A stretch of 64,000 bases of DNA from an uncultured Candidatus Saccharibacteria bacterium (GTDB lineage Bacteria > Patescibacteriota > Doudnabacteria > UBA920): positions 136,226-200,225 of the forward strand of contig CAZEKH010000001.1 of assembly GCA_964512925.1 (NCBI GenBank), read 5' to 3'. The notes below the pieces were generated by a model, which saw only the letters and a list, made by a program, of their open reading frames with translations, made no database searches and was not told the DNA's origin. Position 1 is the stretch's first letter, and each line of letters starts with the position of its first letter. This document shows positions 7,398-56,112 of the stretch, one piece after another. A program made the position numbers and the translations under genes.

Positions 7398-7490
7398 GGG
7401 AAATGAAAATATCAATGCCCAAAACACCGCCCTAAAGTAGAGCAGGAGGTAGAGGATGAGACCAAGAAATGTAATGAGGATTTGATCATA

Positions 7491-7904: not shown

Positions 7905-7998
7905 GTTGCCTCACCCCCCAGTACTATTTAGTACGGGGCAAGCCAGCCCCCAGCCCGAACGCCGCAAGCGGGCAGGTCTCCGATGTCGGAGAGGGGGT
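7905..7998. repeat. composite GC-rich palindromic repeat (CCTCACCCC / CCCGAACGCC...GGCGGGCAGGTCTCC-loop-GGAGAGGGGG modules)
   Basis: Same modules recur at 48320-48390, 48660-48740, 49140-49205, 52142-52200 and 55830-55900, and inside pgm at 33590-33650. Confidence 0.7.
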
Positions 7999-9737: not shown

Positions 9738-10502
9738 ATGGAAAATTTAGATGATACACCAATTCATAGCAAAGTGCAAAAAGCCATTCAGAGTGGAGAT
9801 GTTAAAATGCGCCCCAGATGGGTGTTTGGACTAAAAACTTTTTCTGCTGTTTTGGGTTTTGTTTTGCTGATTTTGTCTTTGTGGTATATTGGCAGTCTGA
9901 TTGTGTTTCTGCTCAGCGCGAACGGGCTGTGGGCAGCCCCGGGTTTTGGCTTTAGAGGGTTGGTTGCTTTTTTATGGTCAGTGCCCTGGGTTTTGTTGGT
10001 TTTATCGCTTATGTTTTTGTTTGTGGTAGGCCTCTTGGTTAGCCATTTTTCTTTTGCCTATGGCAGGCCTTTGATTTTTACCGCTTTCGGCATAATAGTA
10101 GTTAGCGTTGCCGGGACTGTTATTGTATATCTAACCCCTTTGCATCAGAATTTGTTTTTACAGGCCAGGATGCACAAATTGCCGTTTGGGGAAAATCTAT
10201 ACCAAGGTTATGGGTTTTCCAGGTCTGAAAAATTGGCAGCGGGCGAAGTGATGCAGATTGTGCCTGAGGGTTATGTGCTGGAAACCCCGCAGGAAGAAAT
10301 ATTATATGTATTAGTGGCTCCGGACACGGATTTTTCTTATGGTAGGGATATAGATTTGGGGGATAGGATTTTAGTTATAGGCGTCAGGCGTAAAAATACC
10401 ATAGATGCCAGAGCTGTCAGGGAGCTTAAGAGTCAGGAATTTTTAAGGCCCAGAGGTGCCTATGAGGGTAAATTTAAAATGCTTCAGCTGCCGGTGAAAT
10501 AA
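9738..10502 (+). CDS. membrane protein, putative anti-sigma factor partner of the ECF sigma
   Basis: Starts 5 nt after the sigma gene. Several TM helices. Function by position only. Confidence 0.45.
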   Translation: MENLDDTPIHSKVQKAIQSGDVKMRPRWVFGLKTFSAVLGFVLLILSLWYIGSLIVFLLSANGLWAAPGFGFRGLVAFLWSVPWVLLVLSLMFLFVVGLLVSHFSFAYGRPLIFTAFGIIVVSVAGTVIVYLTPLHQNLFLQARMHKLPFGENLYQGYGFSRSEKLAAGEVMQIVPEGYVLETPQEEILYVLVAPDTDFSYGRDIDLGDRILVIGVRRKNTIDARAVRELKSQEFLRPRGAYEGKFKMLQLPVK

Positions 10503-15194: not shown

Positions 15195-15292
15195 GCAGGG
15201 TACAGGAGTAGGCCTTGAATAATTAAAAGTTCGCTTTAGTATTCTGCGTTTCACAATTTTGTCAAAAAAATCGTGAAAATATATTGTTCTCC

Positions 15293-15368
15293 TCCCTTGA
15301 GGGGAGGGGTTAGGCCTGCCCGAAATGCATGAGCATGCATATGCGATGCAGGCGGGGGAGGGTGATGC
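15293..15368. repeat. ~50-bp repeat, inverted copy at 32325-32385
   Basis: GGCCTGCCCGAAATGCATGAGCATGCATATGCGATGCAGG is the reverse complement of 32330-32378. Confidence 0.7.
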
Positions 15369-29480: not shown

Positions 29481-29684
29481 GCCGCTCGCACCCGGCTTAC
29501 GGTGCGGCGCTAACCGCAGGATCTCTAAGCGAGGTTTTGGCGGGAAACGATCCGAAGCGGCGGCCGAAGGCCTGCCGAAGACGGATCGCCGGCGCGGCGA
29601 TGTCTGCATATAATATATTATGAAAAAAAATAAGATCTAGCTTAAAACCCTAGGTCTTTTCTTTTGATTTATTTTTTATAAATT

Positions 29685-29785: not shown

Positions 29786-30880
29786 CTATGCAGATGTTAG
29801 GAAATGAACAACATCCCCATCCTGTACCACATAGGCTTTGCCTTCGGTGCGAAGCCAGCCTTTTTCTCGGGCCTTGCCATAGCTGCCGGCTTCCAGGAGT
29901 TTGTCCCACTGGATGACTTCCGCGCGGATGAAGTTTTTTTCAAAGTCAGAGTGGATCTTGCCTGCGGCCTCAGGCGCTTTGGAGCCGGCTACACAAGTCC
30001 AGGCTTTGGACTCTTTTGGTCCCGCCGTGATGAAAGTTACCAAGCCCAAAGTTTTGTAGGCTTGTTTGATGATTTTGTTTAAACCTGACTCAGGCAGTCC
30101 CAGCTCTTTTAAATATTCGCTCCGTTCTTCGTCAGAAAGTTCGGAAAGCTCGGATTCAAGTTGCGCATCAGCAGATATAAAATCCTTATAGTCCCCCTCC
30201 CCAGGCTTGGGGAGGGTTGGGGAGAGGTCGAAGTTTTTAGTACTTAAATCAAATTTCTGGTTCGCCACAAACAAAAACGGTTTTGTGGTAAGAAGCTGGA
30301 TGTCTTTGCTGTTTTCTTTTTCTTCATCGCTCAAAGAAACTTCAGACGCCATTTTCCCTTGGTTTAAAGCTTCTCTATATTTTTCCAAAACCTGTTTTTT
30401 TATAACCATTTCCCGGTCGCCGGATCTGGCGCCTTTGGAAGCGGTCTCAAGCCTTTTTTCCACATTTTGCAGGTCAGCCAGCTGAAGCTCCAGGCCAATA
30501 GTTTCCATATCCCTTTTTGGGTCCACAGTGCCGGAAACGTGGATGATGTCCTTGTTTTCAAAAAACCTTATAACTTCCATTATAGCGTCCACTTCTCTTA
30601 TGTTTGCCAAAAACTGGTTACCCAAACCTTCGCCTTTGTGCGCGCCGGCAACCAAACCTGCGATGTCCACGAACTCTATGGTAGTAGGCACGACTTTTTC
30701 ACTTTTTTCCTGCTGGGCAAGTTTTCCAAGCCTCTCGTCCGGCACTGTTACGACTGCCACGTTTGGTTCAATAGTTGCAAAAGGGTAGTTGGAAGCCACA
30801 ACCTTGCTTTTGGTAATGGCGTTAAAAAGTGTGGATTTGCCTACATTTGGCAGGCCGACAATGCCGATTTTGAAGCTCAT
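29786..30880 (-). CDS. ychF: ribosome-binding ATPase YchF (Obg-family GTPase)
   Basis: GIVGLPNVGKSTLFNA, NYPFATIEPN, C-terminal TGS domain. In-frame repeat insertion at 30190-30235 (PKPGEGDYKDF). Confidence 0.9.
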   Translation of the reverse strand: MSFKIGIVGLPNVGKSTLFNAITKSKVVASNYPFATIEPNVAVVTVPDERLGKLAQQEKSEKVVPTTIEFVDIAGLVAGAHKGEGLGNQFLANIREVDAIMEVIRFFENKDIIHVSGTVDPKRDMETIGLELQLADLQNVEKRLETASKGARSGDREMVIKKQVLEKYREALNQGKMASEVSLSDEEKENSKDIQLLTTKPFLFVANQKFDLSTKNFDLSPTLPKPGEGDYKDFISADAQLESELSELSDEERSEYLKELGLPESGLNKIIKQAYKTLGLVTFITAGPKESKAWTCVAGSKAPEAAGKIHSDFEKNFIRAEVIQWDKLLEAGSYGKAREKGWLRTEGKAYVVQDGDVVHFLTSA

Positions 30881-32479: not shown

Positions 32480-33940
32480 ATGCAAAACATAGATACTTCC
32501 ATTTTCAAAGCCTATGACATAAGGGGTATATATCCAACACAGATAGATGCGGATTTGGTATATAAAATTGGTCAGGCGTATTTGCAGTTTCTGCAAACGC
32601 GGAATTACGCTGACCAAGACGCGGACTTACGGAGAAAGTTTAAAATTGTAGTGGGACACGATATGCGCCTGTCTGGGGAGGAGTTTTCTGAAAGCGCAAT
32701 CCGCGCTTTGACAGACGCGGGAGCGGATGTGGTGGATATCGGCCTGGTTTCAACTGATCAGTTGTACTTTGCTGCCGCGACTTTGGACGTTGATGGCGGT
32801 ATTCAGATCACTGCCAGCCACAACCCGAAAGAATACGGCGGGATGAAATTGGTTAGGGAAAAAGGCCGGCCGATTTCGGGGGATAGCGGAATTTATCAGA
32901 TTCGGGATTTGGTAATAAGTAATCAGAAATCAGTTATCAGTGATCAGAGAGGAAGAGTGGAAAAGAAGGATATTACTGAAGAGTATTATAAACATATACT
33001 AAAAACTTTTGAAATAAGTAAATTTAAAAAATTCCGTATAGTTGCCAATGCCAACTTTGGGATGGCTAATCCCGCCATCGAAAAGCTTAAAACTCTTTTG
33101 CCAATTGAGTTTGTGGAAGTTTTAAATGGCCATTTGGACGGCAGTTTCCCTAAAGGACCTTCGGATCCACTACTTCACTCTAACCGTGAAGAAACTATAG
33201 AAGCCATAAAAAAGCACAAACCGGATTTGGGCGTGGCTTGGGACGGGGACGCTGACCGTTGTTTCTTTTTTGATGAGAACGGAAAATTTGTCACACCCGC
33301 GTACATAAACGCGATTTTAGCAGAATACTATTGCAAAAAAAATCCAGGCTGCAAGATACTTCACGATACCAGGGTTGTAAGAGTGATTGATTATGCCGTA
33401 GAAAAAAACGGGGGAGTGAGTGTCATGAACAAAGCCGGCCACTCGTTCATAAAAGAGCGGATGATCAAGGACGACATTGTTTTTGGCAATGAAACTTCGG
33501 GGCACTATTATTTCAAGGACAATTTTTATCTGGATAACGGCCTAATGCCGTTTTTGGCAATACTGTCAATTTTGTCCGAATATATATCTCCCTCATCCTT
33601 TGCGGGAGACCTGCCCGCCGTGGGTGTTCGGGCGGGGGGTCAGGGAGAGGTCGTGCTGTTATCCGATATTCTACAGCCTTTACGCGAGAAGTTTTTTATC
33701 TCCGAAGAGATAAATTTTAAAGTCAAAGATGCCAATCAGGTTATTGAAAGCCTCAGGCAAAAATACCAGGAAGCCAAAATAGATGAAATAGACGGTTTGG
33801 ATTTTAATTTCCCATCCTGGCGCTTCAATGTGCGCAAAAGCAATACAGAACCGCTTTTAAGGCTCAACTTGGAAGCTAATAGCCAAAAAGAGCTTGAGGA
33901 AAAACAAAAAGAAATTAGCGATTTAATTTTAGCCATATGA
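32480..33940 (+). CDS. phosphomannomutase/phosphoglucomutase (alpha-D-phosphohexomutase family)
   Basis: Active-site TASHNPKEYGGMK, metal-binding DGDADR. In-frame palindromic-repeat insertion at 33590-33650 (SFAGDLPAVGVRAGGQGEVV). Confidence 0.85.
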   Translation: MQNIDTSIFKAYDIRGIYPTQIDADLVYKIGQAYLQFLQTRNYADQDADLRRKFKIVVGHDMRLSGEEFSESAIRALTDAGADVVDIGLVSTDQLYFAAATLDVDGGIQITASHNPKEYGGMKLVREKGRPISGDSGIYQIRDLVISNQKSVISDQRGRVEKKDITEEYYKHILKTFEISKFKKFRIVANANFGMANPAIEKLKTLLPIEFVEVLNGHLDGSFPKGPSDPLLHSNREETIEAIKKHKPDLGVAWDGDADRCFFFDENGKFVTPAYINAILAEYYCKKNPGCKILHDTRVVRVIDYAVEKNGGVSVMNKAGHSFIKERMIKDDIVFGNETSGHYYFKDNFYLDNGLMPFLAILSILSEYISPSSFAGDLPAVGVRAGGQGEVVLLSDILQPLREKFFISEEINFKVKDANQVIESLRQKYQEAKIDEIDGLDFNFPSWRFNVRKSNTEPLLRLNLEANSQKELEEKQKEISDLILAI

Positions 33941-40399: not shown

Positions 40400-41005
40400 A
40401 AATATCACCCCCCAGCCCCCTCTTACTTTAAGAGGGGGAGGAGAAAAAAAGGCTCTAATTATTTTATAGAAATGATATTGTTCCGTCCCTCCCCTTAAGA
40501 TAAGGGGAGGTTAGGAGGGGATACTTTTTAGCGCATTTATTGTTTGCAGAATTTTTTCTCCTACGCCATCAATATTTTTAAATACATCAGTATTGTAAAA
40601 TCTTAATACAATAATATTTTGTTTATCTAAAAATTTAGTGCGGATTTCATCATTGATTTTATTTTGTATCTCTAAATGCTGTCCGCCGTCTAACTCAATA
40701 GCAAGTCTTAATTTTGAACAATAAAAATCCAAAATATAATTACCCACGCTATATTGCCGCGTAAATTTATAACCCGTTTGTCTGTTCCTTAAAATCTGCC
40801 AGAGTTTGTATTCTGCATCTGTTTGGTTGTTGCGAAGATTTTTTCTAAGTTGCTTTAACTGTGGGTGTTGGTAAAACATAAAGTATGAGTGAATATCACC
40901 CCCCAGCCCCCTCTCCTGCCAAAGGCGGGCAAGTATTTTAAGAGGGGGAGGTTATTTTTGCATTATCCCTCCCCTTAAGATAAGGGGAGGTTAGGAGGGG
41001 ATAGT
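40400..41005 (-). mobile_element. DUF559 endonuclease cassette bounded by ~110-bp direct repeats
   Basis: Direct repeats 40400-40510 and 40893-41005 (m1 ATCACCCCCCAGCCCCCTCT...TAAGAGGGGGAGG; m2 TCCCTCCCCTTAAGATAAGGGGAGGTTAGGAGGGGATA) flank the 369-bp ORF. Confidence 0.4.
40511..40879 (-). CDS. DUF559 endonuclease-domain protein (Vsr/restriction-endonuclease-like fold)
   Basis: YILDFYCSKLRLAIELDGGQH motif typical of DUF559. Confidence 0.75.
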   Translation of the reverse strand: MFYQHPQLKQLRKNLRNNQTDAEYKLWQILRNRQTGYKFTRQYSVGNYILDFYCSKLRLAIELDGGQHLEIQNKINDEIRTKFLDKQNIIVLRFYNTDVFKNIDGVGEKILQTINALKSIPS

Positions 41006-41013
41006 GTTTCGAA

Positions 41014-42975
41014 TTATAAACTCTTTTTTATAGTCTCTGCCAGTTTTTGCCCCACCACTTCAGCCAGTTCTTCCAATGATGAGTTTTTTATTTGGCTGAC
41101 TGTGCCGAATTTGGTTTTTAAGAGTTTTTTGGTTTTAGGCCCCACGCCCGGTATTTCGTCCAGCGCAGATTTAACGGCTTGCTTGCTTCTTAAGCTTCGG
41201 TGGAAAGTTATGCCAAACCTGTGGGCTTCGTCGCGAAGTCTTTGCAACATCTGAAGCCCGGGCTGATCGTGGCTTAAAACTATGGGAGTGGGATTGCCCG
41301 GTAAAAATATTTCCTCGATGCGTTTGGCCAAGCCGATCAAGGGTATAGGGCTAAGGGCTAAGGGTATAGACTCTATTTTTTCCAGCGCAGCGGATAGTTG
41401 GCCTTTGCCCCCGTCTATCACTATCAAATCCGGTATGGGCCAGAACTCCCCCGGCTTCGCCACCCCCTCTTTGGCAAAGAGGGGGGAGGGGGAGTTCGTC
41501 TGATTTACTGATCCACTGACCAAATGTCCCGACTTGGCTAGTCTTCTGCTTAGCATTTCCTGCATCATCTGGAAATCGTCCGGCGTGTCTTTTGTGCGGA
41601 TTTTAAATTTTCGGTATTCGGATTTTTTAGGCATTCCGCCCTCAAACACCACCATACTCCCGACCGCGTTAGTGCCCTGGGTGTTGGAGATGTCGTAACA
41701 TTCTATCCGCCTTGGGATATTTTTCAAATTCAAAACTTCTTTGAGTTGCTCCAATCCTGCATTTATCCTATCTAGCATAAAGGCTTCGGAAGACTGTTTT
41801 TGTTTGAGAAATTCCAAAGCGTTTTCTTCGGCTATTTTCCAGAGTTTTTGCGGTTGTTTTTGAATTGCTAAATTGATTTTAATAGTTTTGCCTGAGCGTT
41901 CTTTTAGTAAAGCTTCTAGAAGGTTTTGATTTTCAATTTTAGTTCCAGTATAAATTTTTTTCGGAAAATCCGAAGTCTTACTATAATAGTCCTCTAAAAA
42001 CCTTTGCAGCCCAGTTTCTTCCCCCCTTAAGATAAGGGGGGACTGAGGGGGGTTATGATGCAGAGTGGATTTGTAGACATTTGTAAATTTGTCTTTCATT
42101 TGTATATTTGAATTTTTGTAGACAAAATTTTCCTTATCTGCCAGTTTTCCTTGCCTGACTTTCAGTAGACTAAAAGAGATCTCCCCATTTGCTTGGCTTT
42201 GCCCGACAACATCCCAGGAAACTTTTTTAGGCATAATCACATTTTGCTTTTGTTCCAGAGATTCTAGGGATTTGATTTGGTTTCTAAGGCGCGCGGCTTT
42301 TTCAAAAAGTTTTTTAGCCGCGGCTTTTTGCATTTCTCTGGCAATTTCTTTTTTTACGCCTATTATGTCGCCTTGTAAAAATTTTTTAATTTTATCGAGA
42401 TGTTTTGCGTATTCTTCAAGGGTTATTGAGCCTATGCACACACCAGGGCAGCGGTGCAGATGAAAGTAAAAGCAAGGTTTTTGGCCAATTTTCTCATTGG
42501 CGCAATAGGAAAAGATGTAGCGGACAGTTTTAAGAATCTCTTTGGCTTTGTAAGCGGCGGAGTAGGGACCGAAAGAAGTAGGGCTAAGGGCTAAGGGTTT
42601 AGGGTGTAGGGATAGTTCAATATTTCTGGAAATGGTTATTTGGGGTATTTGTGTTGAGTAGTCAATGACAATAAACGCATAGCTCTTGTCGTCTTTTTGG
42701 AGGATGTTGTATTTGGGGCGGTATTTTTGGATCAGGGTTTGTTCCAGGTACAGGCTTTCAAGTTCAGTTGAAACTACTGTAAAGTCTAAGCTTTTTGCTT
42801 CCTGCATCAAGAAAGGAATTTGAGGTCTTTCATCTGTGCCACGGAAATACTGGCTAACTCGGTTTTTCAGGTCTTTGGCTTTACCCACATACAAAACCGC
42901 CCCGTCTTGGTCTTTGTAAATATAGACCCCGGGTTTTTTGGGGAGGCTTGGGAGGGTGAAACTTATTTTTTTCAT
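41014..42975 (-). CDS. uvrC: excinuclease ABC subunit C; start at internal Met MKKISF (the ORF track's upstream extension translates an intergenic hairpin)
   Basis: N-terminal GIY-YIG (GVYIYKDQDGAVLYVGKAKDLKNR), UvrBC interaction region, RNase-H-like endonuclease, C-terminal HhH. At least four in-frame repeat-derived insertions. Confidence 0.9.
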   Translation of the reverse strand: MKKISFTLPSLPKKPGVYIYKDQDGAVLYVGKAKDLKNRVSQYFRGTDERPQIPFLMQEAKSLDFTVVSTELESLYLEQTLIQKYRPKYNILQKDDKSYAFIVIDYSTQIPQITISRNIELSLHPKPLALSPTSFGPYSAAYKAKEILKTVRYIFSYCANEKIGQKPCFYFHLHRCPGVCIGSITLEEYAKHLDKIKKFLQGDIIGVKKEIAREMQKAAAKKLFEKAARLRNQIKSLESLEQKQNVIMPKKVSWDVVGQSQANGEISFSLLKVRQGKLADKENFVYKNSNIQMKDKFTNVYKSTLHHNPPQSPLILRGEETGLQRFLEDYYSKTSDFPKKIYTGTKIENQNLLEALLKERSGKTIKINLAIQKQPQKLWKIAEENALEFLKQKQSSEAFMLDRINAGLEQLKEVLNLKNIPRRIECYDISNTQGTNAVGSMVVFEGGMPKKSEYRKFKIRTKDTPDDFQMMQEMLSRRLAKSGHLVSGSVNQTNSPSPLFAKEGVAKPGEFWPIPDLIVIDGGKGQLSAALEKIESIPLALSPIPLIGLAKRIEEIFLPGNPTPIVLSHDQPGLQMLQRLRDEAHRFGITFHRSLRSKQAVKSALDEIPGVGPKTKKLLKTKFGTVSQIKNSSLEELAEVVGQKLAETIKKSL

Positions 42976-43677: not shown

Positions 43678-46584
43678 ATGGCTGATATCATTTCTATCCG
43701 CGGGGCGCGGATGCATAACTTAAAAAATATTGATGTAGATTTGCCTAGAAACAAGCTGGTGGTTTTAACCGGCCTGTCAGGCAGCGGCAAGTCGTCTTTG
43801 GCTTTTGACACCATCTATGCCGAAGGGCAGAGAAGGTATGTGGAAAGTTTGTCAGCTTATGCCAGACAGTTCATTGGTCTTATGGACAAGCCGGACGTGG
43901 ACAAAATAGAAGGTTTGTCCCCGGCAATTTCCATTGACCAAAAGTCCGCATCGCACAACCCTCGCTCTACTGTCGGAACCGTAACTGAAATTTATGACTA
44001 TATGAGGCTACTTTGGGCTCGTGTGGGAGTGCCTCATTGTCCGGTCTGCGGGAAAAAAATCCAAGGTCAAACTATCCAGGCAATGGCTGAGCAGCTTTTG
44101 GGTTTGGAAAAAGGCACAAGGCTGATGCTTTTGGCGCCTTTTATTAAAGATCAAAAAGGCGAACACCGGCATATATTTGAACAGATCAAAAAAGCCGGTT
44201 TTGCCCGCGTGCGTGTGGATGGCACAGTGATGGACTTAAACGAAGCCCAGGGTTTAAGCCTGGACAAGCAAAAAAAACATAATATAGAAGTGGTGGTGGA
44301 CCGCGTGGTGGTAGATCCGGCTGAACGGGGCAGACTCTCCGAGAGTCTGGAAAAGGCTGCGGATTTGGGCGATGGGATAGTTATAGCTTTGCGGGTTGCT
44401 GAAGAAACAAAACCTGACAGCAAGACGCGATCAACCTCTCCCCAGCCCTCCCCAAGTCTTGGGGAGGGAGGCTATAAGGAAATATTGCTCTCCCAAAAAT
44501 TCGCTTGTCCGGACGGACACATTCAGCTGTCTGAGCTGGACCCGAGGGATTTTTCTTTTAACAGCCCGCACGGAGCTTGTTCGGAGTGTAAGGGTTTGGG
44601 CACTAAGCTGACGGTGGAGCCGGATTTGGTTTTACCCAACCACCGGCTGACTTTGGCTGAAGGCGCTATCCGTCCCTGGAGCAAGACGACTTCCAGACAG
44701 TCCTGGTACTCGCGGATGCTGGAAGCCGTGGCCAAAGAATACGGTTTTTCCGTACACACTCCGGTGAAAGATTTGCCAAAAAAATATATTGATATTGTTT
44801 TGCACGGTTCAGGCGAGAAAAAAATCCGCATCTCCGGCGAGTTTAGGAGCGGCGACGGGGAGTTTGAGATGAACACGGTTTTTGAAGGCGTGGTGCCAAA
44901 CCTGGAGAGGCGGTACCGCGAGACTGACTCGGAATATATGCGCAGCGAAATAGAAAATTATATGCGCGTGCGCCAGTGTCAGGTTTGCCACGGCAAGCGC
45001 CTTAGGCTGGAAGTTTTGGCTGTGACCGTAGGCGGACAGGGGATAGTGGAGGTATCTGCTATGACTATAGACAAAGCCGCGGATTTTTTTGAAAAACTTT
45101 CCAAATCTTTGAGCGCCAAAGACAATCAGATTGCCAAACAAATTTTAAAGGAAATTTCCGCGCGTCTGTCTTTTTTGCTCAATGTTGGTTTGTCGTATTT
45201 GTCTTTGGACAGAACTGCGGATACTTTGTCCGGTGGGGAAGCCCAGCGCATCCGTTTGGCGACCCAGATCGGCAGCGGCCTGACCGGAGTTTTGTATATA
45301 TTGGACGAGCCATCTATCGGCCTGCATCAGCGCGACAACGGTAGACTCCTTAAAACATTGAAAGATTTAAGAGATTTGGGCAATACGGTGATAGTTGTAG
45401 AGCACGATGAGGAAACCATTCGCGAGGCGGATTGGGTGGTGGACATCGGACCAGGAGCCGGCAAGCACGGAGGCGAGCTGGTGGCGGAAGGTAAACCTTT
45501 GGATATTGAAAAAAATCCGAAAAGCATCACCGGGCAGTATTTGTCAGGAAAAGAATACATAGAAGTGCCGAAAAAAAGACGGCACGGCAACGGTAAAAAT
45601 ATTTCAGTTGTGGAAGCTTCTGAGTTTAACCTGAAAAATGTTACAGCCCAGATCCCGCTCGGCAAATTTGTCTGCGTAACCGGGGTGTCAGGTTCCGGCA
45701 AATCTACATTGATTTCTGACATTTTAGCCAGAGCGTTAAACAAACATTTTTGGGACAGCAAGGACGAACCAGGCAAGCATAAAAAGATCACGGGACTTGA
45801 ACACCTAGACAAAGTCATCAGCATTGACCAAAGCCCCATAGGCAGGACTCCGAGGTCAAACCCGGCTACTTACACCGGGCTGTTTACGCCGATCCGGGAG
45901 ATTTTTGCCGAAACCCGCGAAGCCAAGATGCGCGGCTATCAGGCTGGCAGGTTTAGTTTCAACGTCAAAGGCGGTCGTTGTGAGAAATGCGCCGGGGACG
46001 GGGTTTTGAAAGTCGAGATGAATTTTTTACCCGATGTCTATGTAACCTGCGAAGAGTGCAACGGCAAAAGGTATAACCGCCAGGCTTTGGAGATCCACTA
46101 TAAAGAAAAAACCATTTCCGATGTTTTGGAGATGACAGTTGACGAAGCAAAAACTTTTTTTGCAGCCGTGCCTGCCTTGCACAAAAAACTGGAAGTCTTG
46201 TCCCAGGTGGGCTTGGGCTATATGCGCCTGGGCCAGAACGCCACGACTTTGTCCGGCGGGGAAGCTCAGAGGATCAAACTTGCAACCGAACTGTCGCGCG
46301 CGTCTACCGGCCGCACTCTTTACCTTTTAGACGAGCCAACTACGGGCTTACATTTTGCGGACGTCAAACGTTTGATCCACGTTTTAAACAAACTGGTAGA
46401 CAAGGGCAACACTGTGGTGGTCATAGAACACAATCTGGATATGATCAAAACCGCGGATTGGCTTTTGGATATGGGTCCGGACGGGGGAGACAAGGGCGGA
46501 ACTATAGTTGCCGAAGGCACACCCGAAGATGTGGCAAAAGTCAAAGTTAGCTTTACCGGCCAATACCTAAAAAAGATTTTATAA
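43678..46584 (+). CDS. uvrA: excinuclease ABC subunit A
   Basis: Two ABC ATPase modules ([12 protein letters not shown]; [11 protein letters not shown]), zinc fingers and signature motifs. In-frame repeat insertion at 44430-44480 ([17 protein letters not shown]). Confidence 0.95.
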
Positions 46585-47149: not shown

Positions 47150-47475
47150 CACACCTTCATACACGACTGTATGAAGGTGTGGGTGGGGAAAGTGGGGGGT
47201 GGGTTGGTTTGTAGAATTGCCACAAAACTGACCAAATAAAGTTTGGATTTTAAATAATCCGCCTTAAATAAGGCGGATTATTTTTGCTATGGGGCTTGAT
47301 TTTTTTGAGGGTTTGTGTTAAAGTAACAAAGCTTTGAATGAGGAATCGACTAAACCTAAGGGTAAGGCCGATTTTTTGTTTGTTTGTCGCGGTGCAGGAG
47401 ATCTCGCACTACGGCAAAAAGCTGCGCCCGTCTCAAAAAGGCGGGTTAAGATTTCAGTTCACCAAGGAGAGGGAA

Positions 47476-48102
47476 ATGTCAGATTTTCGCAAGTTGTTTC
47501 TCGCGGCTTTCGCCGCGATTCTGATGTTCTGGGCGCCGCAGACTGCGTCGGCAGGTTTCGTGGACAATTTCGAATTGAACCCGAACGCTGGGGACGTGGG
47601 CGGTCTAGATGGTTCGAATACGATCTGGGTCGTCACGCCCACCCTGGACGTTGCGGGACCCATGTATGGAGGTCTCTCGTGCCACAGCGGCACGAGTTGT
47701 ATCGACATGGACGGCACTGGCCAGATGGCCGGCTCCCTCAAGACCATGTTCGCTACTATGGTTGGGGCGACTTACACCGCCAATTTCTGGATCGGGGGAA
47801 GTCAGCGCAACTTCCTTGGACCGGATGCGGTGACGGTGAATTTCGGGACCGCGATCCCACTGGTGGTCACGACGCCGCAAGGCGACACCAGCTGGACAAT
47901 GTACACAATGTCTTTCGTCGGTGATGGGAACAACCACTGGTTGGAATTTGTCGGTCAGGGAGCCGACAACGTCGGAGTGTTGCTGGACGACGTGGAACTG
48001 GCCGATAACTCGGTTCCGGAGCCCGCGACGTTCGCGTTGATCGGCGGAGGTCTGGTGCTTCTCGGCCTCAAACGCCGAGGTCGCAAGAACGCCAACAACT
48101 AG
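47476..48102 (+). CDS. secreted protein with C-terminal PEP-CTERM sorting signal; high GC (~60%)
   Basis: Start at Met preceded by GGAGAGGG SD (the ORF track's extension to 47338 is unlikely). Signal peptide. C-terminus VPEPATFALIGGGLVLLGLKRRGRK. Confidence 0.55.
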   Translation: MSDFRKLFLAAFAAILMFWAPQTASAGFVDNFELNPNAGDVGGLDGSNTIWVVTPTLDVAGPMYGGLSCHSGTSCIDMDGTGQMAGSLKTMFATMVGATYTANFWIGGSQRNFLGPDAVTVNFGTAIPLVVTTPQGDTSWTMYTMSFVGDGNNHWLEFVGQGADNVGVLLDDVELADNSVPEPATFALIGGGLVLLGLKRRGRKNANN

Positions 48103-48104
48103 TC

Positions 48105-48135
48105 CGCCCGCCCCGATGTCCATCGGGGCAGGCAA
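48105..48135 (+). terminator. hairpin / possible terminator
   Basis: GCCCCGATGTCCATCGGGGC. The same CCGATGTCCATCGG stem is used in the rpoC terminator. No T-run. Confidence 0.35.
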
Positions 48136-48289
48136 GGAGGACTAATCGCAATAAATTAGCCTGTTTCCCGCGTTCGGGCAGCAAGCAGGCTAATCGCTGT
48201 TTTTCGCACTCCCTAGCAGGACGGCGAAAAACACACGCAACAATGTTCGCTCGAGCCGCGACTCACTTCTGTGATCGCGGCTCTTTTCA

Positions 48290-49215
48290 TTTGTATAATT
48301 TTTTACATACTAATTAACTCCCCCAAGGCCCCCCGTCCGAACGCCCACGGCGGGCAGGCCTCTTTAAAAAAGAGGGGGGAATGAAGCGGGTAGGTTTGAA
48401 AAAGAGTGGAAAAAATATTACAGTCGTTGCAACCTCACCCCACCCCCTCTCCGATAGCGGAGAGGGGGAAGCGGATGCAAGATTCCAGCCGGAGTTTACC
48501 CCGATGAACATCGGGGCGGGAATGATACCTTTTCTATTTTTGTCATCCCCACATAACCGGGGATCTTGGTTTTTACCCTCTCCAATATGGGAGAGGGTGT
48601 CCCGATGAACATCGGGACGGGTGAGGTTTGAGCGATGGTGATAAAATATAAGTTGGTTTAATTTTCTAACATTGTTACCTCACCCCATCCCCCCGCCCGA
48701 ACGCCACAGGCGGGCAGGTCTCCCAAATGGGAGAGGGGGTAAAGAACGCATCATTCTCACCTAGTGGGAATGATATAGAAACGCGGAATGACGGAATATT
48801 TTTCCTATTTTCCCCAAGTTTCCCACATAGCTTTGCACAGGGGTTTTCCACTTTTGGGGGATAATTTTTGCTGTTTGTTGGGCTTTGACCAGAGGCAGGC
48901 TTTTGTGCCAAGATATAAAGACCACTTTTTACCCCCGTTAGAAGCAATCCGCCGTCAGGTGGATACCGAGCCTTTTTGTGCCCGGGCTTCTAACGGGGTG
49001 ATCTGGTTTGTGGGGACATTAACTCCCCCTGACCCCCTCTTTGAAAAAGAGGGGGAAATGAAAGGGGGTAGATTTGAAAAAGAGGGGAGAGGCTTAAAAT
49101 ATTACAATCATCGTAACCTCACCCCCCTACTTCGTTAAAACTTCGTAGGGCAAGCCAGCCCCCCGCCCGAACGCCCAAGCCGGGCAGGTCTCCGATAGCG
49201 GAGAGGGGAACTAAT
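48290..49215. repeat. ~0.9-kb non-coding repeat cluster
   Basis: Contains CCCTCTCC-loop-GGAGAGGG hairpins, CCGATGAACATCGG hairpins, CCCGAACGCC..GGCGGGCAGGTCTCC modules, a TGTCATCCCC..GGGGATC element and a 75-bp GGTGAGG..CCTCACC MITE-like unit. Confidence 0.7.
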
Positions 49216-50451
49216 TTGATATCTATGAATGAGCTGAAAATAAAAATTGAACAAGAGATTGTTAAAGCTTCCGGGATTTCTATCATCGGGCTTTTAAACG
49301 ACCTGGTGGAATACGCGGAAAGCCTCCGCGCTTCGGACATCCATATTGACCCGTACGAAAAAGATGTGCTGGTTCGTTTTCGCGTGGACGGGGTCTTGCA
49401 GGAGATATTCCGCTTGCCGAAAAATATCCATAGCGAAACAATCAGCCGCATCAAGATTTTGTGCGGCCTGAGGACTGACGAACATCAGGCGGCGCAGGAC
49501 GGACGCTTTCGGATGTTTTTTGATGTTGAAAAGAAAAAATTCATTGACGTCCGCGTGTCCGTGGTCCCAACTTACTTTGGCGAAAACGCGGTGATGCGTC
49601 TTTTGACTGACAAGGCCGAAGGTTTGTCTTTGGACGACTTGTATTTTTCCAAAGAAAACCAGAAAAAAATCCTTAAAGCCGCGCATAAGCCTTATGGGAT
49701 GATCTTAACTACCGGCCCTACGGGTTCGGGCAAAACCACCACGCTTTACGCGCTTATCAAGCTTTTACAGGGGCCAGAAATTTCTATCGTAACTATAGAA
49801 GACCCGATTGAGTACGCGATGCTGGGCATAGAGCAGATCCAGGTCAACTCCAGAACCAACTTAACTTTTGCCCAGGGACTTCGCGCCATCCTCAGGCAGG
49901 ACCCAAACATCATAATGGTTGGCGAAATCCGCGACTCAGAAACTGCCGGGATAGCGGTTAATACGGCGCTTACTGGACATTTGCTTTTGTCCACTCTTCA
50001 TACCAATGACCCGGCTACCACTCTGCCCAGGCTTTTGGATATGGGAATAGAGAGCTATCTGGTTGCCTCCACTGTTAACTTGGTTATCGGTCAGAGATTG
50101 GTTAGAAAAATTTGCGAGAGCTGCAGAGTAGTAAAAAAATTCACCCCTGCTGAAACCAAAAGTTTGTCCGAACATATCCCTTTAAAAATCTTAAAAAAAT
50201 TTAAACACTTCTATCAAGGTACCGGCTGCGATGAATGTAACAACACCGGGTATAAAGGCAGGGTGGCGCTGCACGAGGTGTTGGAAGTTGATGATCATAT
50301 CCGCGAGTTGATTTTGAAAAAAGCTTCCGCAACGGAGATCCGCCATCAGGCTTTTGAAAAAGGCACGGTGGCTATGGGAATGGATGGTCTTTTAAAAGCC
50401 GGGCAAGGCCTGACCACGGTGGAAGAGATACTCAGGATAAGCCATGAGTAG
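49216..50451 (+). CDS. pilB: type IV pilus assembly ATPase, GspE/PilB family (short form)
   Basis: Walker A GPTGSGKTTT, Asp and His boxes, C-terminal tetracysteine CESC...CDEC. Confidence 0.8.
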   Translation: MISMNELKIKIEQEIVKASGISIIGLLNDLVEYAESLRASDIHIDPYEKDVLVRFRVDGVLQEIFRLPKNIHSETISRIKILCGLRTDEHQAAQDGRFRMFFDVEKKKFIDVRVSVVPTYFGENAVMRLLTDKAEGLSLDDLYFSKENQKKILKAAHKPYGMILTTGPTGSGKTTTLYALIKLLQGPEISIVTIEDPIEYAMLGIEQIQVNSRTNLTFAQGLRAILRQDPNIIMVGEIRDSETAGIAVNTALTGHLLLSTLHTNDPATTLPRLLDMGIESYLVASTVNLVIGQRLVRKICESCRVVKKFTPAETKSLSEHIPLKILKKFKHFYQGTGCDECNNTGYKGRVALHEVLEVDDHIRELILKKASATEIRHQAFEKGTVAMGMDGLLKAGQGLTTVEEILRISHE

Positions 50452-50517: not shown

Positions 50518-50895
50518 TAATTTGCTGTCATCCCGGCCTTGAGCCGGGATCCAGGGTTATATGCAAAACGAATGTTATGTATACATCCTTGCAAACAAAA
50601 GAAACGGAACACTGTATGTGGGAGTGACCAATGACTTAATAAGAAGAGTTTATGAACATAAAAATGATTTAACAGAAGGCTTTACTAAAAAGTACCAGAT
50701 ACACACTTTAGTCTATTTTGAAAATACAGGAAATATAGAAAGCGCAATAAAAAGAGAAAAACAGTTAAAAAGATGGCAAAGACAATGGAAAATATCCCTT
50801 ATTGAAAAACAAAATCCGCAGTGGAATGAGTTATACTCTAACTTGACTTAACCCTGGATCCCGGATATCCGCCTAAGGCGGATTCCGGGATGACA
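50518..50895 (+). mobile_element. GIY-YIG gene bounded by inverted hairpin repeats
   Basis: Left TGTCATCCCGGCCTTGAGCCGGGATCCAGGGTT (50521-50553). Right AACCCTGGATCCCGGATATCCGCCTAAGGCGGATTCCGGGATGACA (50840-50887). Both are members of the same element family, in opposite orientation. Confidence 0.4.
50561..50851 (+). CDS. small stand-alone GIY-YIG nuclease (UPF0213-like) inserted between pilB and pilC
   Basis: CYVYILANKRNGTLYVGVTNDLIRRVYEHKN. Confidence 0.7.
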   Translation: MQNECYVYILANKRNGTLYVGVTNDLIRRVYEHKNDLTEGFTKKYQIHTLVYFENTGNIESAIKREKQLKRWQRQWKISLIEKQNPQWNELYSNLT

Positions 50896-51023: not shown

Positions 51024-52142
51024 ATGTTTAATTTAAAAATTCAAAAAAACACACCTGAACTAGTTACTTCTCCGTCGTTTTTTACCCGCCTTGTTGAAGG
51101 TTCCATCTCCCGCTCGGAGCAGGTGCAGTTTGCAAAGAGGCTGGCTTTTTTGATGCGCGCGGGAGTGCCGATTTTAGAGAGCCTGCAGATTTTGGCCGGG
51201 CAGTCTAAGACTAAAGGCGGCAAAAAAATGTTAGAGAATTTGGTGTCAGAAGTTTCCAACGGGCATTTTTTGTCTACCGCAATGGCTAAGTTTTCTTCCG
51301 TGTTTGGTGACTTTGCGGTCAACATTGTCAAAGTCGGGGAACAGGCTGGCATCTTGCCTGAGAATTTAAACTATTTGGCGGAGGAGCTGAAAAAAAAGCA
51401 GGCGCTGAGAAAAAAAGTGATGGGCGCTTTGTTTTACCCGATATTTATAGTGGTGGCCACGCTTTTGTTGGTGGGACTTTTAACTGTCGTGGTGTTTCCT
51501 AAAGTTTTACCCATCTTTACCAGTATCAATGTGCCTTTGCCTGTTAGCACAAAAATTCTAATGTCAGTCAGCCGGTTTCTCATAGCTTATGGATTTTGGG
51601 TGTTGATTTTGATATTGATTTTTCCCTTCGCTCTTTTGTTTTTATCCCGCTTGCCTAAAGTCAAAGCCTGGCTGGATAAAGTTTTGCTGAAAATTCCGTT
51701 AGCCGGTAGCATTGCCCAGAACTATTATTTGGCTAACTTTTGCCGGACTATGGGACTGCTACTCAAAGGCGAGTCGCGCCTTGACGAAGCTTTGCAGACT
51801 TCCGCGCGTACCACGCAAAATATGGTTTACAGAAAGCAGCTGGAAAACCTGGCGCAGACTGTAGCGAAAGGCAGTAGGATGTCCGAGTATATGCTGAAAA
51901 ACAAAAAATATTTTCCGGATATGGTGTCTCATATGTTGGCCGTGGGGGAAACCGCGGGCAACCTAAGCGAGAGTTTTATGTATCTGGCGGATATGTACGA
52001 AACCGAGGTAGATGACCAGACAAAAAATTTATCTACTCTCATTGAGCCGGTTTTGATGGTGTTTATGGGCCTGTTGGTCGGTTTTGTTGCGATTTCCATC
52101 ATCACCCCAATTTATTCGGTTACCCAGAAATTACATCCATAA
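51024..52142 (+). CDS. pilC: type IV pilus inner-membrane platform protein PilC (GspF family)
   Basis: Two T2SSF repeats and three TM segments. Confidence 0.85.
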   Translation: MFNLKIQKNTPELVTSPSFFTRLVEGSISRSEQVQFAKRLAFLMRAGVPILESLQILAGQSKTKGGKKMLENLVSEVSNGHFLSTAMAKFSSVFGDFAVNIVKVGEQAGILPENLNYLAEELKKKQALRKKVMGALFYPIFIVVATLLLVGLLTVVVFPKVLPIFTSINVPLPVSTKILMSVSRFLIAYGFWVLILILIFPFALLFLSRLPKVKAWLDKVLLKIPLAGSIAQNYYLANFCRTMGLLLKGESRLDEALQTSARTTQNMVYRKQLENLAQTVAKGSRMSEYMLKNKKYFPDMVSHMLAVGETAGNLSESFMYLADMYETEVDDQTKNLSTLIEPVLMVFMGLLVGFVAISIITPIYSVTQKLHP

Positions 52143-52265
52143 TGCCCCTCTCCGAGCACGGAGACCTGCCCGCCGTGGGCGTTCGGGCGGGGGGTTAGGG
52201 TGAGGTAACAGTGTTTGAATATTAAATAAGCTTAAATTTTATTACCATCGCTTAAACCTCACCCC
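52142..52265. repeat. composite repeat including a 75-bp MITE-like element (GGTGAGGTAACAG...TTAAACCTCACC)
   Basis: Near-identical copy at 52870-52990. Related copies at 48610-48683 and 58930-59005. Confidence 0.7.
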
Positions 52266-52311
52266 AGCCCTCTCCCATATAGGAGAGGGAGTAAAAACAT
52301 TTCTGACAATT

Positions 52312-52797
52312 ATGATCAATTCTGCGCAATCTAAAAACGGGTTTACCCAACACCATTTTTTTTTAGAAAAAAATAGTGCTGGGTTTACCCTCATAGAAGT
52401 TTTGGTTTCAATGGGTATACTGGCAATGCTGGGGACTTTGGGACTGGTGTTTGGGTTGGATTTTTATCGGGCGTATGCTTTTAACTCGGAAAGGGATTTG
52501 GCGGTGGGGATTTTACAAAAAGCGCGCAGTCGCAGTTTGGCTAACATTAACCAAACAACTCACGGAGTTTGTATTATAGGTTCTAAATATATTTTGTTTG
52601 AGGGTGCTTTAAATTGCGATCCGAACAATTCAGCCAATGAAGTTTATGATGCAAACCCAGGCGTTTCAAATTCGGGACTACAAATTGTTTTTCAGCAGCT
52701 TTCCGGTAGGCCGAATTCTGTTGGTTCTGTAACATTAACTTCGGGCGTGAGATCTTCGGTTATTAACATTAACGCTGAGGGGATGGTGGAGTGGTAA
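52312..52797 (+). CDS. pseudopilin / minor pilin (prepilin-type N-terminal cleavage/methylation domain)
   Basis: KNSAGFTLIEVLVSMGILAMLG class III signal. Confidence 0.7.
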   Translation: MINSAQSKNGFTQHHFFLEKNSAGFTLIEVLVSMGILAMLGTLGLVFGLDFYRAYAFNSERDLAVGILQKARSRSLANINQTTHGVCIIGSKYILFEGALNCDPNNSANEVYDANPGVSNSGLQIVFQQLSGRPNSVGSVTLTSGVRSSVININAEGMVEW

Positions 52798-53056
52798 AAT
52801 AATTTAAGATTAAAGATTAAAGATTGAAGATTTAAACAATACGTTTTTATTTTATATGTATGAGTTTTTTCAAATCCCCCTCTCCACTCTCGGAGAGGGT
52901 TAGGGTGAGGTAACAGTGTTTGAATATTAAATAAGCTTAAGTTTTATTACCATCGCTTAAACCTCACCCCTTCCCTCTCCCATATGGGAGAGGGAGTGAA
53001 AAATCAAAAAAAATAGGGTTGAGATAATGTAAAAAAAATGCTAAACTAAGGCGCAA

Positions 53057-54526
53057 ATGAAAATATCAGGAAAAAAAATAAATACCCAGGCAGGCGGCAG
53101 CACGGTTGAGCTAATGGTGGCTTTGTTCGTGTTTGTCGTGTGTTTAGCCGGCATCATTGCCGTGGTTTTTGGCAACCAGTTTTTGTCCGTGGATACGGAG
53201 ATGAACGGAACTGCCATAGCCAAAGCCCAGGAGCTTTTGGATGAAAAGCGTAACGACGCAAGAACGAACTTTAACGGCGTGGTAGCCGGGGTTTCTACTG
53301 ACGGACAATTTACTAAGACAGTGGCAGTCAACAATCTTAACCAATGCCAAAAGGAAGTAACAAGTGAAGTTTCCTGGAACGACGGCACACGCTTACAAAA
53401 AGTTTCTTTAACTACTTTGATCAGCAACACTGACGAGCTCGTGGCGGTCAGCGGAGTTTGCTCAAACCAAAATGGTTTTTCTGGCCTTACTTGCCCCAGT
53501 ACATCGTCTTATTCGGATTGGAATTTTACTTTGCCTGGCGGCGGGACAGTTAAGTCTATGTTTGTGACTAGTAGAATTGTAAGTCTGGCGGTAGACCCTT
53601 CCGGCACGGCAATAACAGATTTTGACTATCTTAGGTTTACAGTTTCTTCTGGTTTAGTATTTAACAATGGAACATTTACAAGAACTCCTTCCGGCGTACG
53701 CACTTCGTCCGGCGGTTTAAACGGCGTAACATATGACAACTCAAAAACTTATGCGTATGGCGCTGGCAAGTGGAGTGGCGCAGGACAAGTGCAGATCATC
53801 AATGCCGACGCAACAAGACCAGGGGGAATGTATGCCATAGCCTTTGTCCTCGATAGTAACACTCAGGACGCTTTAAGCATATTTTTTAGGGACAATAAAA
53901 TTTACATAGGGACAAAAAATAACCCCTCAGGTCCTGAGCTTTATATCATCGACGTTACGAGCCCGGAGTCAGCTCAGATTTTAGCTACCAAAGAGATTGG
54001 CGCGGATGTAAAAAAGATTGTTGTTAGGGGGAGTTTGGCTTACTTAGCAACTTCGGACCCAAGCGCGGAAGCGCGGGTTTATGATATTGGGCAAGTCAAA
54101 AGTATTGCTTTGCCAGGCGTGATCAATTTTGTTGGAAATTTCAATGCCAGTTTGCTTTCCGGTGCCAACAGTTTGGCGGTTTTGGGCGCTACTGTGTTTT
54201 TGGGCGGCAGTGGCGCAAATAATTTTTATGAAATAAATACTTTAAACGCTTCTTCAATGTCTGAGATTACGCATCAACCGATAGGCGGGAGCATAAACGA
54301 CCTTTCCGCCAGCGGCAACCTGGCATATCTCGCCACTGACGGCGCCAATGTTTCAGGCAAGGAGCTTGAACTGTTAAATTACGCGGATATAAGTAGTCCT
54401 CAAACCTGTGCCATTGGTTCGGAAGACTTGCCAGCCTCGGCTTCGGCCGTGGTGTTAGATGGGGGATGGGTGTATGTGGGAATGAATGCTTCAAACAAAC
54501 CGTTGAGGATATATAAGTTTCAGTAG
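53057..54526 (+). CDS. pilin-like protein fused to an LVIVD-repeat beta-propeller domain (candidate pilus-tip adhesin)
   Basis: N-terminus AGGSTVELMVALFVFVV (G-x4-E prepilin-like). C-terminal half has repeated LYIIDVTSPES / ARVYDIGQV / LAYLATxD motifs resembling LVIVD repeats. Confidence 0.55.
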   Translation: MKISGKKINTQAGGSTVELMVALFVFVVCLAGIIAVVFGNQFLSVDTEMNGTAIAKAQELLDEKRNDARTNFNGVVAGVSTDGQFTKTVAVNNLNQCQKEVTSEVSWNDGTRLQKVSLTTLISNTDELVAVSGVCSNQNGFSGLTCPSTSSYSDWNFTLPGGGTVKSMFVTSRIVSLAVDPSGTAITDFDYLRFTVSSGLVFNNGTFTRTPSGVRTSSGGLNGVTYDNSKTYAYGAGKWSGAGQVQIINADATRPGGMYAIAFVLDSNTQDALSIFFRDNKIYIGTKNNPSGPELYIIDVTSPESAQILATKEIGADVKKIVVRGSLAYLATSDPSAEARVYDIGQVKSIALPGVINFVGNFNASLLSGANSLAVLGATVFLGGSGANNFYEINTLNASSMSEITHQPIGGSINDLSASGNLAYLATDGANVSGKELELLNYADISSPQTCAIGSEDLPASASAVVLDGGWVYVGMNASNKPLRIYKFQ

Positions 54527-55096: not shown

Positions 55097-55795
55097 ATGG
55101 AATATACTTATATTTTAAAAAGTAAAAAAGACGGTAAAATGTATACAGGTCTGACCAGTGATCTACGGAAGCGTTTTAAGGAGCATAATGAAGGTTTGGT
55201 TCCTTCTACAAAGAATAGAGGGCCATTTAAGATAATTTATTATGAAGCTTGTGTAAATAGACAAGATGCCGCAAGTAGAGAGATTTTTTTAAAAACTGGT
55301 ATGGGAAAGAGATATATAAAAAATCGTTTAAAACGCTTCCTGTCTCTAACGGCTCAAAGAGATAGTGCTAGCACCGTTATAAACAGCTTGCCAAAGTCAA
55401 GCGAAGTTTTTAACGGTGGATATATCGCTTTAACTTCCGTCATCATCGTTTCTTTATTGCTCCTGACTGTCATCACCGCTTTAAGCTCTGTTAACTATTT
55501 TTCCCGTTACAACATATTGGAAAACGAATATAAGGACAGAAGTTTTGCTTTGGCTGAAGGCTGTGTGGATTATGCTATAGGAAGACTGGCGGGAAATAGT
55601 AATTACATCGGTAATGAAACAGTAAACATCGGAGTCGGAACTTGTCAGGTGGCGTCAGTTTCTTCCGGGGCTTTTCCTAAAACTATCAGCACTGTCGGAA
55701 TTTTTCCACCCACGGCTGCAAAAAAAAGTTATACCAAACTTCAGGCAGTTGTAAGTTCAAGTTTCGCCATCAGTTCTTTTATAGAAAATCCATAA
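55097..55795 (+). CDS. GIY-YIG nuclease domain fused in frame to a pilin-like hydrophobic C-terminal half (possible insertion-generated fusion)
   Basis: First ~90 aa are GIY-YIG (YTYILKSKKDGKMYTGLTSDLRKRFKEHN). The remainder has GGYIALTSVIIVSLLLLTVITAL and an internal TTG that could start a separate minor-pilin ORF. Confidence 0.5.
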   Translation: MEYTYILKSKKDGKMYTGLTSDLRKRFKEHNEGLVPSTKNRGPFKIIYYEACVNRQDAASREIFLKTGMGKRYIKNRLKRFLSLTAQRDSASTVINSLPKSSEVFNGGYIALTSVIIVSLLLLTVITALSSVNYFSRYNILENEYKDRSFALAEGCVDYAIGRLAGNSNYIGNETVNIGVGTCQVASVSSGAFPKTISTVGIFPPTAAKKSYTKLQAVVSSSFAISSFIENP

Positions 55796-56112
55796 ATATG
55801 CTTGTCATTCCCTTGGCAAAGGGAATCTTGTACCCTCTCCCTCTCCGAGAGACGGGGATCTGCCCGCCTTGGGCGTTCGGGTGGGGGTAGGGGTGAGGTT
55901 ACGGATTTGATAAAATTAAAGATATTTAAATATGTAATATTAACCCCTGGATCCCGGATATCCCGCGAAGCGGGATTCCGGGATGACAGCAAAAATTTTT
56001 TGGAAAGATTGAATTTTGAACATTGAATCAAGATATTTCTAAAAAACCAACCGCCTTTACAAAAGGCGGATATAAAATTATAATTAAGCCATAAATATTA
56101 AATCATTAAAAT

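Follow-up and report, generated by a model that had tools for sequence, protein, structure and literature searches.

The Rickettsia palindromic elements (RPEs) lie between genes and also in frame within many unrelated metabolic genes, where they are compatible with the fold of the encoded protein (PMC10969869). Here we describe a comparable element in a 64,000-nucleotide stretch of DNA from an uncultured member of the Doudnabacteria (assembly GCA_964512925.1, contig CAZEKH010000001.1, positions 136,226 to 200,225), which was analysed over its whole length and is hereafter denoted the window. Within the window, a 66-nt segment of the gene encoding an alpha-D-phosphohexomutase (pgm) is an in-frame copy of a short, G+C-rich repeat. 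This segment is very probably a copy of a non-autonomous palindromic repeat of the repetitive extragenic palindrome (REP) / miniature inverted-repeat transposable element (MITE) type, which has spread through the AT-rich genome of this bacterium of the candidate phyla radiation (CPR, or Patescibacteria).

The resemblance to RPEs is close: in both cases palindromic selfish repeats occupy intergenic positions and, in frame, unrelated housekeeping genes of a small-genome bacterium, many genes are affected, and the host fold accommodates the encoded peptide. In the window, copies are present both between genes and within open reading frames (ORFs), the frame is kept, the coding copies are insertions relative to orthologues, and the peptide falls in a loop. 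RPEs are, however, approximately 100–150 bp long, AT-typical, and restricted to Rickettsia and related bacteria, whereas the coding copies described here are 36–66 nt long, strongly G+C-rich in an AT-rich genome, built of nested hairpin modules, and found in Patescibacteria. On this length and on the Doudnabacteria host (as judged from the named close homologues), descent from RPE-1 to RPE-10 was set aside by comparison with their description; similarity to RPEs at the sequence level is neither seen nor to be expected. To our knowledge, repeated hits on the same loop of orthologous proteins are not a reported feature of RPEs, the primary papers on which are those of Ogata et al. (2000 and 2002).

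REPs and bacterial interspersed mosaic elements (BIMEs) are likewise imperfect palindromes of 20–40 nt, often located just after stop codons, with many diverged copies per genome and with inverted pairs around a conserved spacer, similar to the units at 52143–52289 and 52876–52994 of the window. They differ in being extragenic by definition and mobilised by REP-associated tyrosine transposases (RAYTs), whereas copies of the present repeat are frequently inside genes (at least eight lie within ORFs in the 64 kb, by which an extragenic-only family is rejected), with no RAYT in the window; a conserved 5′ GTAG-like tetranucleotide, as in REPs, is not seen here. Bacterial MITEs, including ERIC, Nezha and other Anabaena MITEs, and Correia elements, are short, non-autonomous elements with inverted repeats, some of which form in-frame ORF fusions (PMC10969869). 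Three units in the window (52143–52289, 52876–52994, and 48576–48740) share this trait, having inverted G+C-rich arms around a common AT-rich core, although neither a target-site duplication nor a parent insertion sequence with matching ends was identified within the 64-kb window, and the coding copies are half elements, i.e. one arm without the AT-rich core.

The GC clusters of yeast mitochondria and the double-hairpin elements of Allomyces mitochondria are also G+C-rich mobile elements in AT-rich genomes, which occupy spacers and, on occasion, an in-frame position within a protein gene (var1). These elements are organellar and unrelated in sequence, whereas the present host is a free-standing CPR bacterium in which many essential genes are affected. 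Since size, composition, host, and sequence differ, the repeat is not a member by descent of any of these four groups. The colonisation of coding sequence by palindromic selfish repeats is a known phenomenon that is new in this bacterial group and reveals no new principle or mechanism; within a limited literature set, titles and abstracts yielded nothing relevant on such repeats in Patescibacteria, CPR, or Doudnabacteria. The locus nonetheless represents a second large case beside Rickettsia, notable in that one loop has been hit recurrently, that the modules are nested, and that one module, translated in four different proteins, has spread across phyla.

A palindromic repeat copy in frame within pgm

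The host gene (32480–33940, forward strand) is an intact ORF encoding a 486-residue phosphomannomutase/phosphoglucomutase (PMM/PGM). All four PGM_PMM domains (I–IV) are matched above the curated Pfam cut-offs, and the alignment to Xanthomonas phosphoglucomutase (6nn2; E 3e-101) spans the whole protein. The TASHNP phosphoserine loop, the DxDxDR metal loop, the E..S.H sugar loop, and the domain IV phosphate loop are all intact, with the catalytic residues S113/H114, D255/D257/D259/R260, E338/H342, and R452/T456 the same in all 97 orthologues, of which the window protein is one. The proposal of an initial annotation of this DNA, that the element tolerates insertion into coding sequence, is thus upheld by an enzyme that retains every catalytic motif and carries additional residues relative to both 6nn2 and its closest orthologues.

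The insert occupies 33587–33652 on the forward strand (66 nt, 22 codons), corresponds to one arm of a composite repeat, and in the pgm frame encodes SPSSFAGDLPAVGVRAGGQGEV, which includes the peptide DLPAVGVRAGGQGEV given for this in-frame segment in the initial annotation. Its bounds, which hold to within one codon, come from comparison with insert-free orthologues: approximately 60 of 71 aligned Doudnabacteria orthologues have a five-residue loop (LS-xxxKx-FSE) where the window protein has E-Y-I-SPSSFAGDLPAVGVRAGGQGEV-V-L, hence the length of 22 codons. An extent of 33585–33660, as first assigned, was correct in location but slightly too wide. The G+C content of the insert is 70%, compared with 41% in the remainder of pgm.

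The initial annotation held the pgm segment to be the same module as that present between genes, and named low nucleotide identity between the two as the observation that would speak against this. Alignment of the copies at the nucleotide level instead gave 76–93% identity between the pgm copy and the other strong copies over a 46-nt core, and 68–83% over the 66 nt. The 46-mer quoted at the outset is present exactly at 33605–33650 (forward strand) and with three mismatches at 52160–52205, neither match being seen in 100 dinucleotide-preserving shuffles; a 29-nt core (CTGCCCGCCGTGGGCGTTCGGGCGGGGGG) has six sites with three or fewer mismatches, where none is expected. An nhmmer profile built from the aligned copies identifies seven strong copies in the window (E 2e-17 to 6.5e-13), one of them coding (pgm, 33588–33652, forward strand; E 8e-16) and six intergenic.

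The intergenic copies on the forward strand are located at 52143–52207, 1 nt after the stop codon of a T2SSF/PilC-like gene and forming the left arm of the inverted unit 52143–52289, and at 55837–55900, approximately 40 nt downstream of a GIY-YIG gene. Those on the reverse strand are located at 7934–7998 (6 nt after the tsaD stop codon, with a third, additional hairpin ahead of the tail), 48316–48380, 48676–48740 (an arm of the inverted unit 48576–48740), and 49146–49210 (just upstream of a T2SSE/PilB-like gene). The five intergenic sites listed initially are all real, and the copy at 48316–48380 had been missed. The nhmmer profile also detects a weak eighth copy at 40894–40951 (reverse strand).

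The closest intergenic copy, that at 52143–52207, is identical to the pgm insert at 43 of the 46 core positions. Two of the three differences are synonymous (GGT/GGC and GGA/GGT); the third, T to C, corresponds to an in-frame TAG in the intergenic copy and CAG in the pgm insert. The insert, which with its 11-nt loop in hairpin 1 and its CAG is identical to no other copy, contains no stop codon in the pgm frame. The presence of CAG in place of TAG, together with a length that is a multiple of three, is the pattern that would result if an essential gene retained only those copies that can be translated, and argues against the insert being skipped. Stop codons are rare in G+C-rich sequence. It is likely that the ribosome reads through the insert, adding a disordered surface loop of 22 residues. 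Insert-encoded peptides predicted, if translated, are AGGQGEVVLLSDILQPLR and a peptide ending in SSFAGDLPAVGVR.

Aligned with 6nn2, the window protein is 18–22 residues longer in the stretch that connects the final helix of domain III to the initial helix of domain IV. A model made with AlphaFold2 from the alignment of 97 sequences (mean predicted local distance difference test score (pLDDT) 92.1; predicted template modelling score 0.91) places residues 374–387 in a coil with pLDDT below 50, between helices 356–367 and 394–404, with the remainder above 90. Structure modelling, which had been suggested with the initial annotation as a check on surface exposure, thus locates the insert where domains III and IV meet, in a coil of low confidence flanked by two helices; it is modelled there as an unstructured excursion of the inter-domain loop that is compatible with the fold.

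Modular organisation and further copies of the repeat

In the pgm insert, folding gives a hairpin 1 (33587–33609; TCTCCC, 11-nt loop, GGGAGA), which is followed by a hairpin-2 module (33610–33639; CCTGCCCGCC GTG GGTGTTCGGGCGGGGGG), the pattern of which is common to all seven window copies, and by a G-rich tail (33640–33652; TCAGGGAGAGGTC), the counterpart of the GGG(G)WGAGGT tail in approximately 20 basic elements; all three lie on the forward strand. On sequence comparison, the hairpins are maintained across copies. The comparison was made on the stem of each individual copy, since differing loop lengths displace hairpin 1 from copy to copy in the MAFFT alignment. The loop of hairpin 1 is free to vary while its stem is kept by compensatory substitutions: the TCTCCC/GGGAGA stem in pgm is the variant of 48676–48740, others have TCTCCG/CGGAGA (compensatory at the closing pair) or CCTCTTT/AAAGAGG, and CCTCCTC/GAGGAGG is found in a related genome. 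Hairpin 2 has a CCCGCC/GGCGGG stem, three to five variable loop positions on the 5′ side, and an invariant GGCGTTCGG.

The element had been described initially as a two-hairpin repeat. The repeat is real, but the two-hairpin form is not its basic unit, which is a hairpin plus tail of approximately 38 nt (CCCTCTCC-loop-GGAGAGGG followed by GGGGWGAGGT) without hairpin 2, present in approximately 20 window copies. In the composite subfamily, the second hairpin (CCTGCCCGCC-NNN-GGCGTTCGGGCGGGG) is nested between hairpin and tail; other modules nested at this position are CCCGATGAACATCGGG at 48597–48617 and a 44-nt module at 15291–15363. In inverted units of 120–150 bp, the tails of two arms face each other across a conserved AT-rich core of approximately 48 nt (AACAGTGTTTGAATATTAAATAAGCTTAAATTTTATTACCATCGCTTAA); these units are located between genes of a type IV pilus cluster (52143–52289, 52876–52994, 48576–48740, and 58880–59040). 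The unit at 52876–52994 (119 bp, forward strand) is a complete element lacking hairpin 2, with two basic arms around the AT-rich core. The family is modular; the pgm insert is a single arm, from which the stop-rich AT-rich core is absent.

A described RNA family was considered and rejected, as Rfam at gathering thresholds matches only two tRNAs in the window; a scan of 47900–49300 in E-value mode returned only noise, far below gathering scores. Nor does a role of the AT-rich core as a portable promoter, or of the arms as canonical terminators, find support, a consensus scan of 52100–53100 giving no sigma-70-like or intrinsic-terminator-like site in the units.

Coding insertion of the repeat family is general across genes and lineages, and pgm is not special in this respect. 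The basic-element pattern has 21 matches in the window, seven in ORFs and the remainder between genes; in-frame elements are present in both orientations and give PSP...GEG-type peptides. In-frame copies of the basic element also lie in no fewer than five further housekeeping genes of the window. The gene for ValRS contains a copy at 4368–4407 (reverse strand; SLSHQMGEGLREGV) and a second at 4803–4839, both of which are insertions relative to T. thermophilus ValRS (1gax; 17 and 20 residues). That for TsaD contains a copy at 8636–8675 (reverse strand; SLSRKTGEGLREGV) and a second, in the opposite orientation, at 9001–9041, and again both are insertions (12+6 and 9 residues relative to TsaD 6n9a). 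In UvrA, the element at 44433–44471 (reverse strand) encodes a 14-residue peptide, with the tail-bearing strand opposite to the gene, and the protein has approximately 24 extra residues relative to UvrA 9gxk. The in-frame copies in YchF (30193–30229, forward strand; DLSPTLPKPGEG, in a hypervariable loop) and UvrC (41463–41493) are less firmly shown to be insertions.

Scans of genome and metagenome collections with the hairpin-2 pattern located the module in another Doudnabacteria genome, nzgw378, and in Nomurabacteria and Saccharibacteria contigs. The Doudnabacteria matches (L025 and L029) have the same hairpin 1–hairpin 2–tail plan. In reverse orientation, hairpin 2 inside ORFs of three lineages encodes TPPRPNA(E/I)GGQASQGE. 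Coding copies lie in RecG, between the wedge and helicase domains (L011 4545–4572, L030 4282–4309, and L033, with an identical element and flanks in L034); in IF-2, between domain 2 and the IF-2 domain (L035 1134–1161); and in a 186-residue ORF of a Saccharibacteria contig (L019 1931–1958). The near identity of units of approximately 50 nt across phyla suggests horizontal spread. In other CPR phyla, the hairpin-2 module was observed within the loop of an outer CTCCCCC...GGGGGAG hairpin.

The genome-scan matches that share flanking modules are from CPR only (L011, L019, L025, and L029). The other 20 of the 24 matches, in high-G+C Actinobacteria and similar genomes, were rejected as chance, those inspected having no flanking similarity to the element. 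A protein-database search with concatenated six-frame module peptides returned 2480 candidates that share words, none with E of 10 or below; matches of 12–16 residues cannot reach significance in 5.8 billion sequences.

PGM orthologues and the origin of the insert

The best database relatives of the window PGM are 59–75% identical, and those that are named belong to Candidatus Doudnabacteria or Patescibacteria. Five fetched relatives share the pgm–TrpRS–RNase J neighbourhood, with YchF upstream where shown, and are therefore orthologues. The most identical orthologues lack the insert (P0003, 75%; P0010 and P0013, 74%). Loop inserts are present in 10 of 71 orthologues, eight of the hairpin type and two with a different 13-residue insert, all positioned within approximately one codon of each other. 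The fetched examples consist of a CCCYCTCC...GGAGRGGG-type hairpin and a GGGGWGAGG tail, with differing content and lengths of 39 nt (L002), 42 nt (L003), 36 nt (L005), and 87 nt (L001). In the L001 insert (approximately 8640–8730), a palindrome (TTCGAT..GCTCAGGGTCACCCTGAGC..GTCGAA; peptide FDMAQGHPEQSRS) is nested in the loop of hairpin 1; nesting evidently happens within coding copies too.

In a neighbour-joining tree constructed with the insert columns removed (100 bootstrap replicates), the insert-bearers are scattered over the tree and are monophyletic in none of the 100 replicates. Bearers are paired with insert-free sisters at high support: P0002 with P0038 (bootstrap 100), P0016 with P0027 and P0032 (100), P0011 with P0017 (99), and P0036 with P0048 (97); the sister group of the window PGM never contains a bearer. 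Gain therefore appears to be recurrent, and invasion of the loop at least five times, in different Doudnabacteria lineages, is more parsimonious than one ancient insert that was lost precisely many times. The hot spot may reflect either target preference or the mere survival of tolerated insertions. A second insertion hot spot is located in domain I (32600–32630; residues ~41–50), at the same alignment position in orthologues, with inserts of 4 to 44 residues, the 44-residue insert of P0036 including HSTSSGQVLGGERSG; at this position the window PGM has 9–13 extra residues (pLDDT ~52), which are not G+C-rich.

Repeat membership, insertion relative to orthologues, the open frame, the intact catalytic motifs of the host, and the predicted disordered loop are all consistent with the following outline. 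The repeat would be selfish DNA, non-autonomous and copied to new positions, our best guess being by a trans-acting nuclease or transposase that acts on hairpin-forming DNA, or by break repair. Coding copies would survive only where the frame is kept and the linker is permissive, and the 22 residues would be a neutral or nearly neutral passenger; the insert presumably owes its persistence to a domain III/IV linker that can accommodate added length, rather than to any need for it.

Several points weigh against this outline. Pfam identifies no transposase or RAYT domain in the approximately 53 ORFs of the 64-kb window (the contig being approximately 274 kb), and the flanks of the window copies contain no consistent target-site duplication. 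There is no true empty-site allele for comparison, since identity to the closest orthologue without an insert reaches only 75%. That the insert is translated is an inference. Single-sequence folding only modestly beats shuffles (z +0.05 to −3.0), G+C-rich shuffles also folding well, and the invariant GGCGTTCGG is not explained by a purely structural model and hints at sequence-specific recognition by some factor. Finally, a 14-nt 3′ end (GGTCAGGGAGAGGT) is identical between the window and L002 pgm inserts, which leaves some room for their common ancestry.

This shared end is one reason to consider a single ancient insertion in the Doudnabacteria ancestor, followed by many precise losses and by re-patterning of the survivors through gene conversion from intergenic repeats, such that the window insert would be old. 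The near-coincident positions of the inserts of all bearers and their common hairpin-plus-tail plan fit such a history. We consider it improbable, however, as the shared tail is a family consensus present at many unrelated sites, most orthologues (approximately 60 of 71) have the short loop, the bearers are scattered among sisters that lack the insert at 97–100% bootstrap, and at least five exact in-frame deletions, each restoring the same loop length, would be required. A different question, which concerns retention and is compatible with a selfish origin, is whether the insert is kept because it is useful, either as a flexible domain III/IV hinge that tunes closure of domain 4, or as an mRNA hairpin that pauses ribosomes. 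The RNA fold of the insert (−35.7 kcal/mol), the frame held open by the TAG-to-CAG difference, the occupation of the same linker in several lineages, and the similar inter-domain location of the hairpin-2 copies in RecG and IF-2 could be read in this way. Usefulness is nevertheless unlikely, given that most orthologues, including the closest, do without the insert, that its sequence and length differ freely between lineages, and that the peptide is predicted to be disordered; moreover, any surviving insert in an essential gene needs an open frame, whether useful or not.

Two further explanations both appear very remote. Repeats are a classic cause of misjoins, the source is apparently metagenome-assembled, and the identical window PGM protein is known from a single NCBI contig of 273,987 bp, all of which would be in keeping with a repeat copy misjoined into pgm during assembly; yet both flanks continue the pgm frame exactly around an insert whose length is a multiple of three, its sequence is unlike that of every other copy, and independent assemblies of orthologues carry comparable inserts in the same loop. 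The insert might alternatively be left untranslated, through ribosomal bypassing or removal from the mRNA, as with the G+C-rich ‘byp’ elements of Magnusiomyces mitochondria. A stable G+C-rich hairpin element within AT-rich coding sequence is reminiscent of that situation, but no stop codon interrupts the frame in the insert or in the other coding copies examined, and the stop codon of the closest intergenic copy is absent here, as expected if the insert is read.

The genomes of CPR bacteria (Patescibacteria) are tiny, and many of the encoded proteins contain lineage-specific insertions that lack an explanation. The pgm locus provides a concrete source for some of these, namely G+C-rich palindromic repeats in permissive linkers of essential enzymes, and the independent hits on the same PGM loop in several lineages constitute a natural experiment on target preference versus selective filtering. 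Proteins with such inserts look more divergent than they are, and annotation acquires spurious ‘PSP...GEG’ low-complexity motifs; homology-based binning or phylogenomics of CPR could also be confounded.

Neighbouring nucleases and other hairpin-rich regions

Small free-standing GIY-YIG genes (50561–50851 and 55097–55795) and a DUF559/Vsr-like nuclease gene (40511–40879) adjoin repeat copies in the window, the latter having hairpins on both sides (40488–40510 and 40894–40990). A GIY-YIG gene also follows pgm in L005 (6949–7212), and L002 has a DUF559 gene (7281–7619) next to a hairpin. As possible mobilising or homing enzymes, these adjoining nucleases are a lead rather than evidence.

A broader interpretation, which we regard as doubtful, is that the hairpin modules form an active, CPR-wide mobile family that inserts time and again into the same linkers between domains of essential proteins, maybe driven by a site- or structure-specific nuclease, such as those encoded by the GIY-YIG and DUF559 genes beside several copies, with the invariant GGCGTTCGG loop as recognition site. 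Examples on which it draws are the PGM domain III/IV loop in at least five Doudnabacteria lineages, and RecG, IF-2, ValRS, TsaD, and UvrA elsewhere. If true, such a family would act as a general driver of the lengthening of loops and linkers in proteins of these ultra-small bacteria.

Upstream of the PilB-like ATPase gene lies a gene-free stretch of 1.1 kb (48100–49216) with at least six nested palindromic modules, comprising three composite copies, CCCGATGAACATCGGG hairpins, and CCCCCTCTTT...AAAGAGGGGG hairpins, with no Rfam match. Unrelated to the repeat, the window also encodes a PEP-CTERM-motif protein (47338–48102) and a protein with an AbiEii-type toxin domain (56999–57619), each on a weak or partial Pfam match. 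Further G+C-rich islands (at least 77% G+C over 30 nt) are located at 3428–3480, 9914–9952, 29481–29609, and 58440–58493; several of the four are inside long ORFs, none matches the repeat profile, and they might be other, unrelated hairpin modules.

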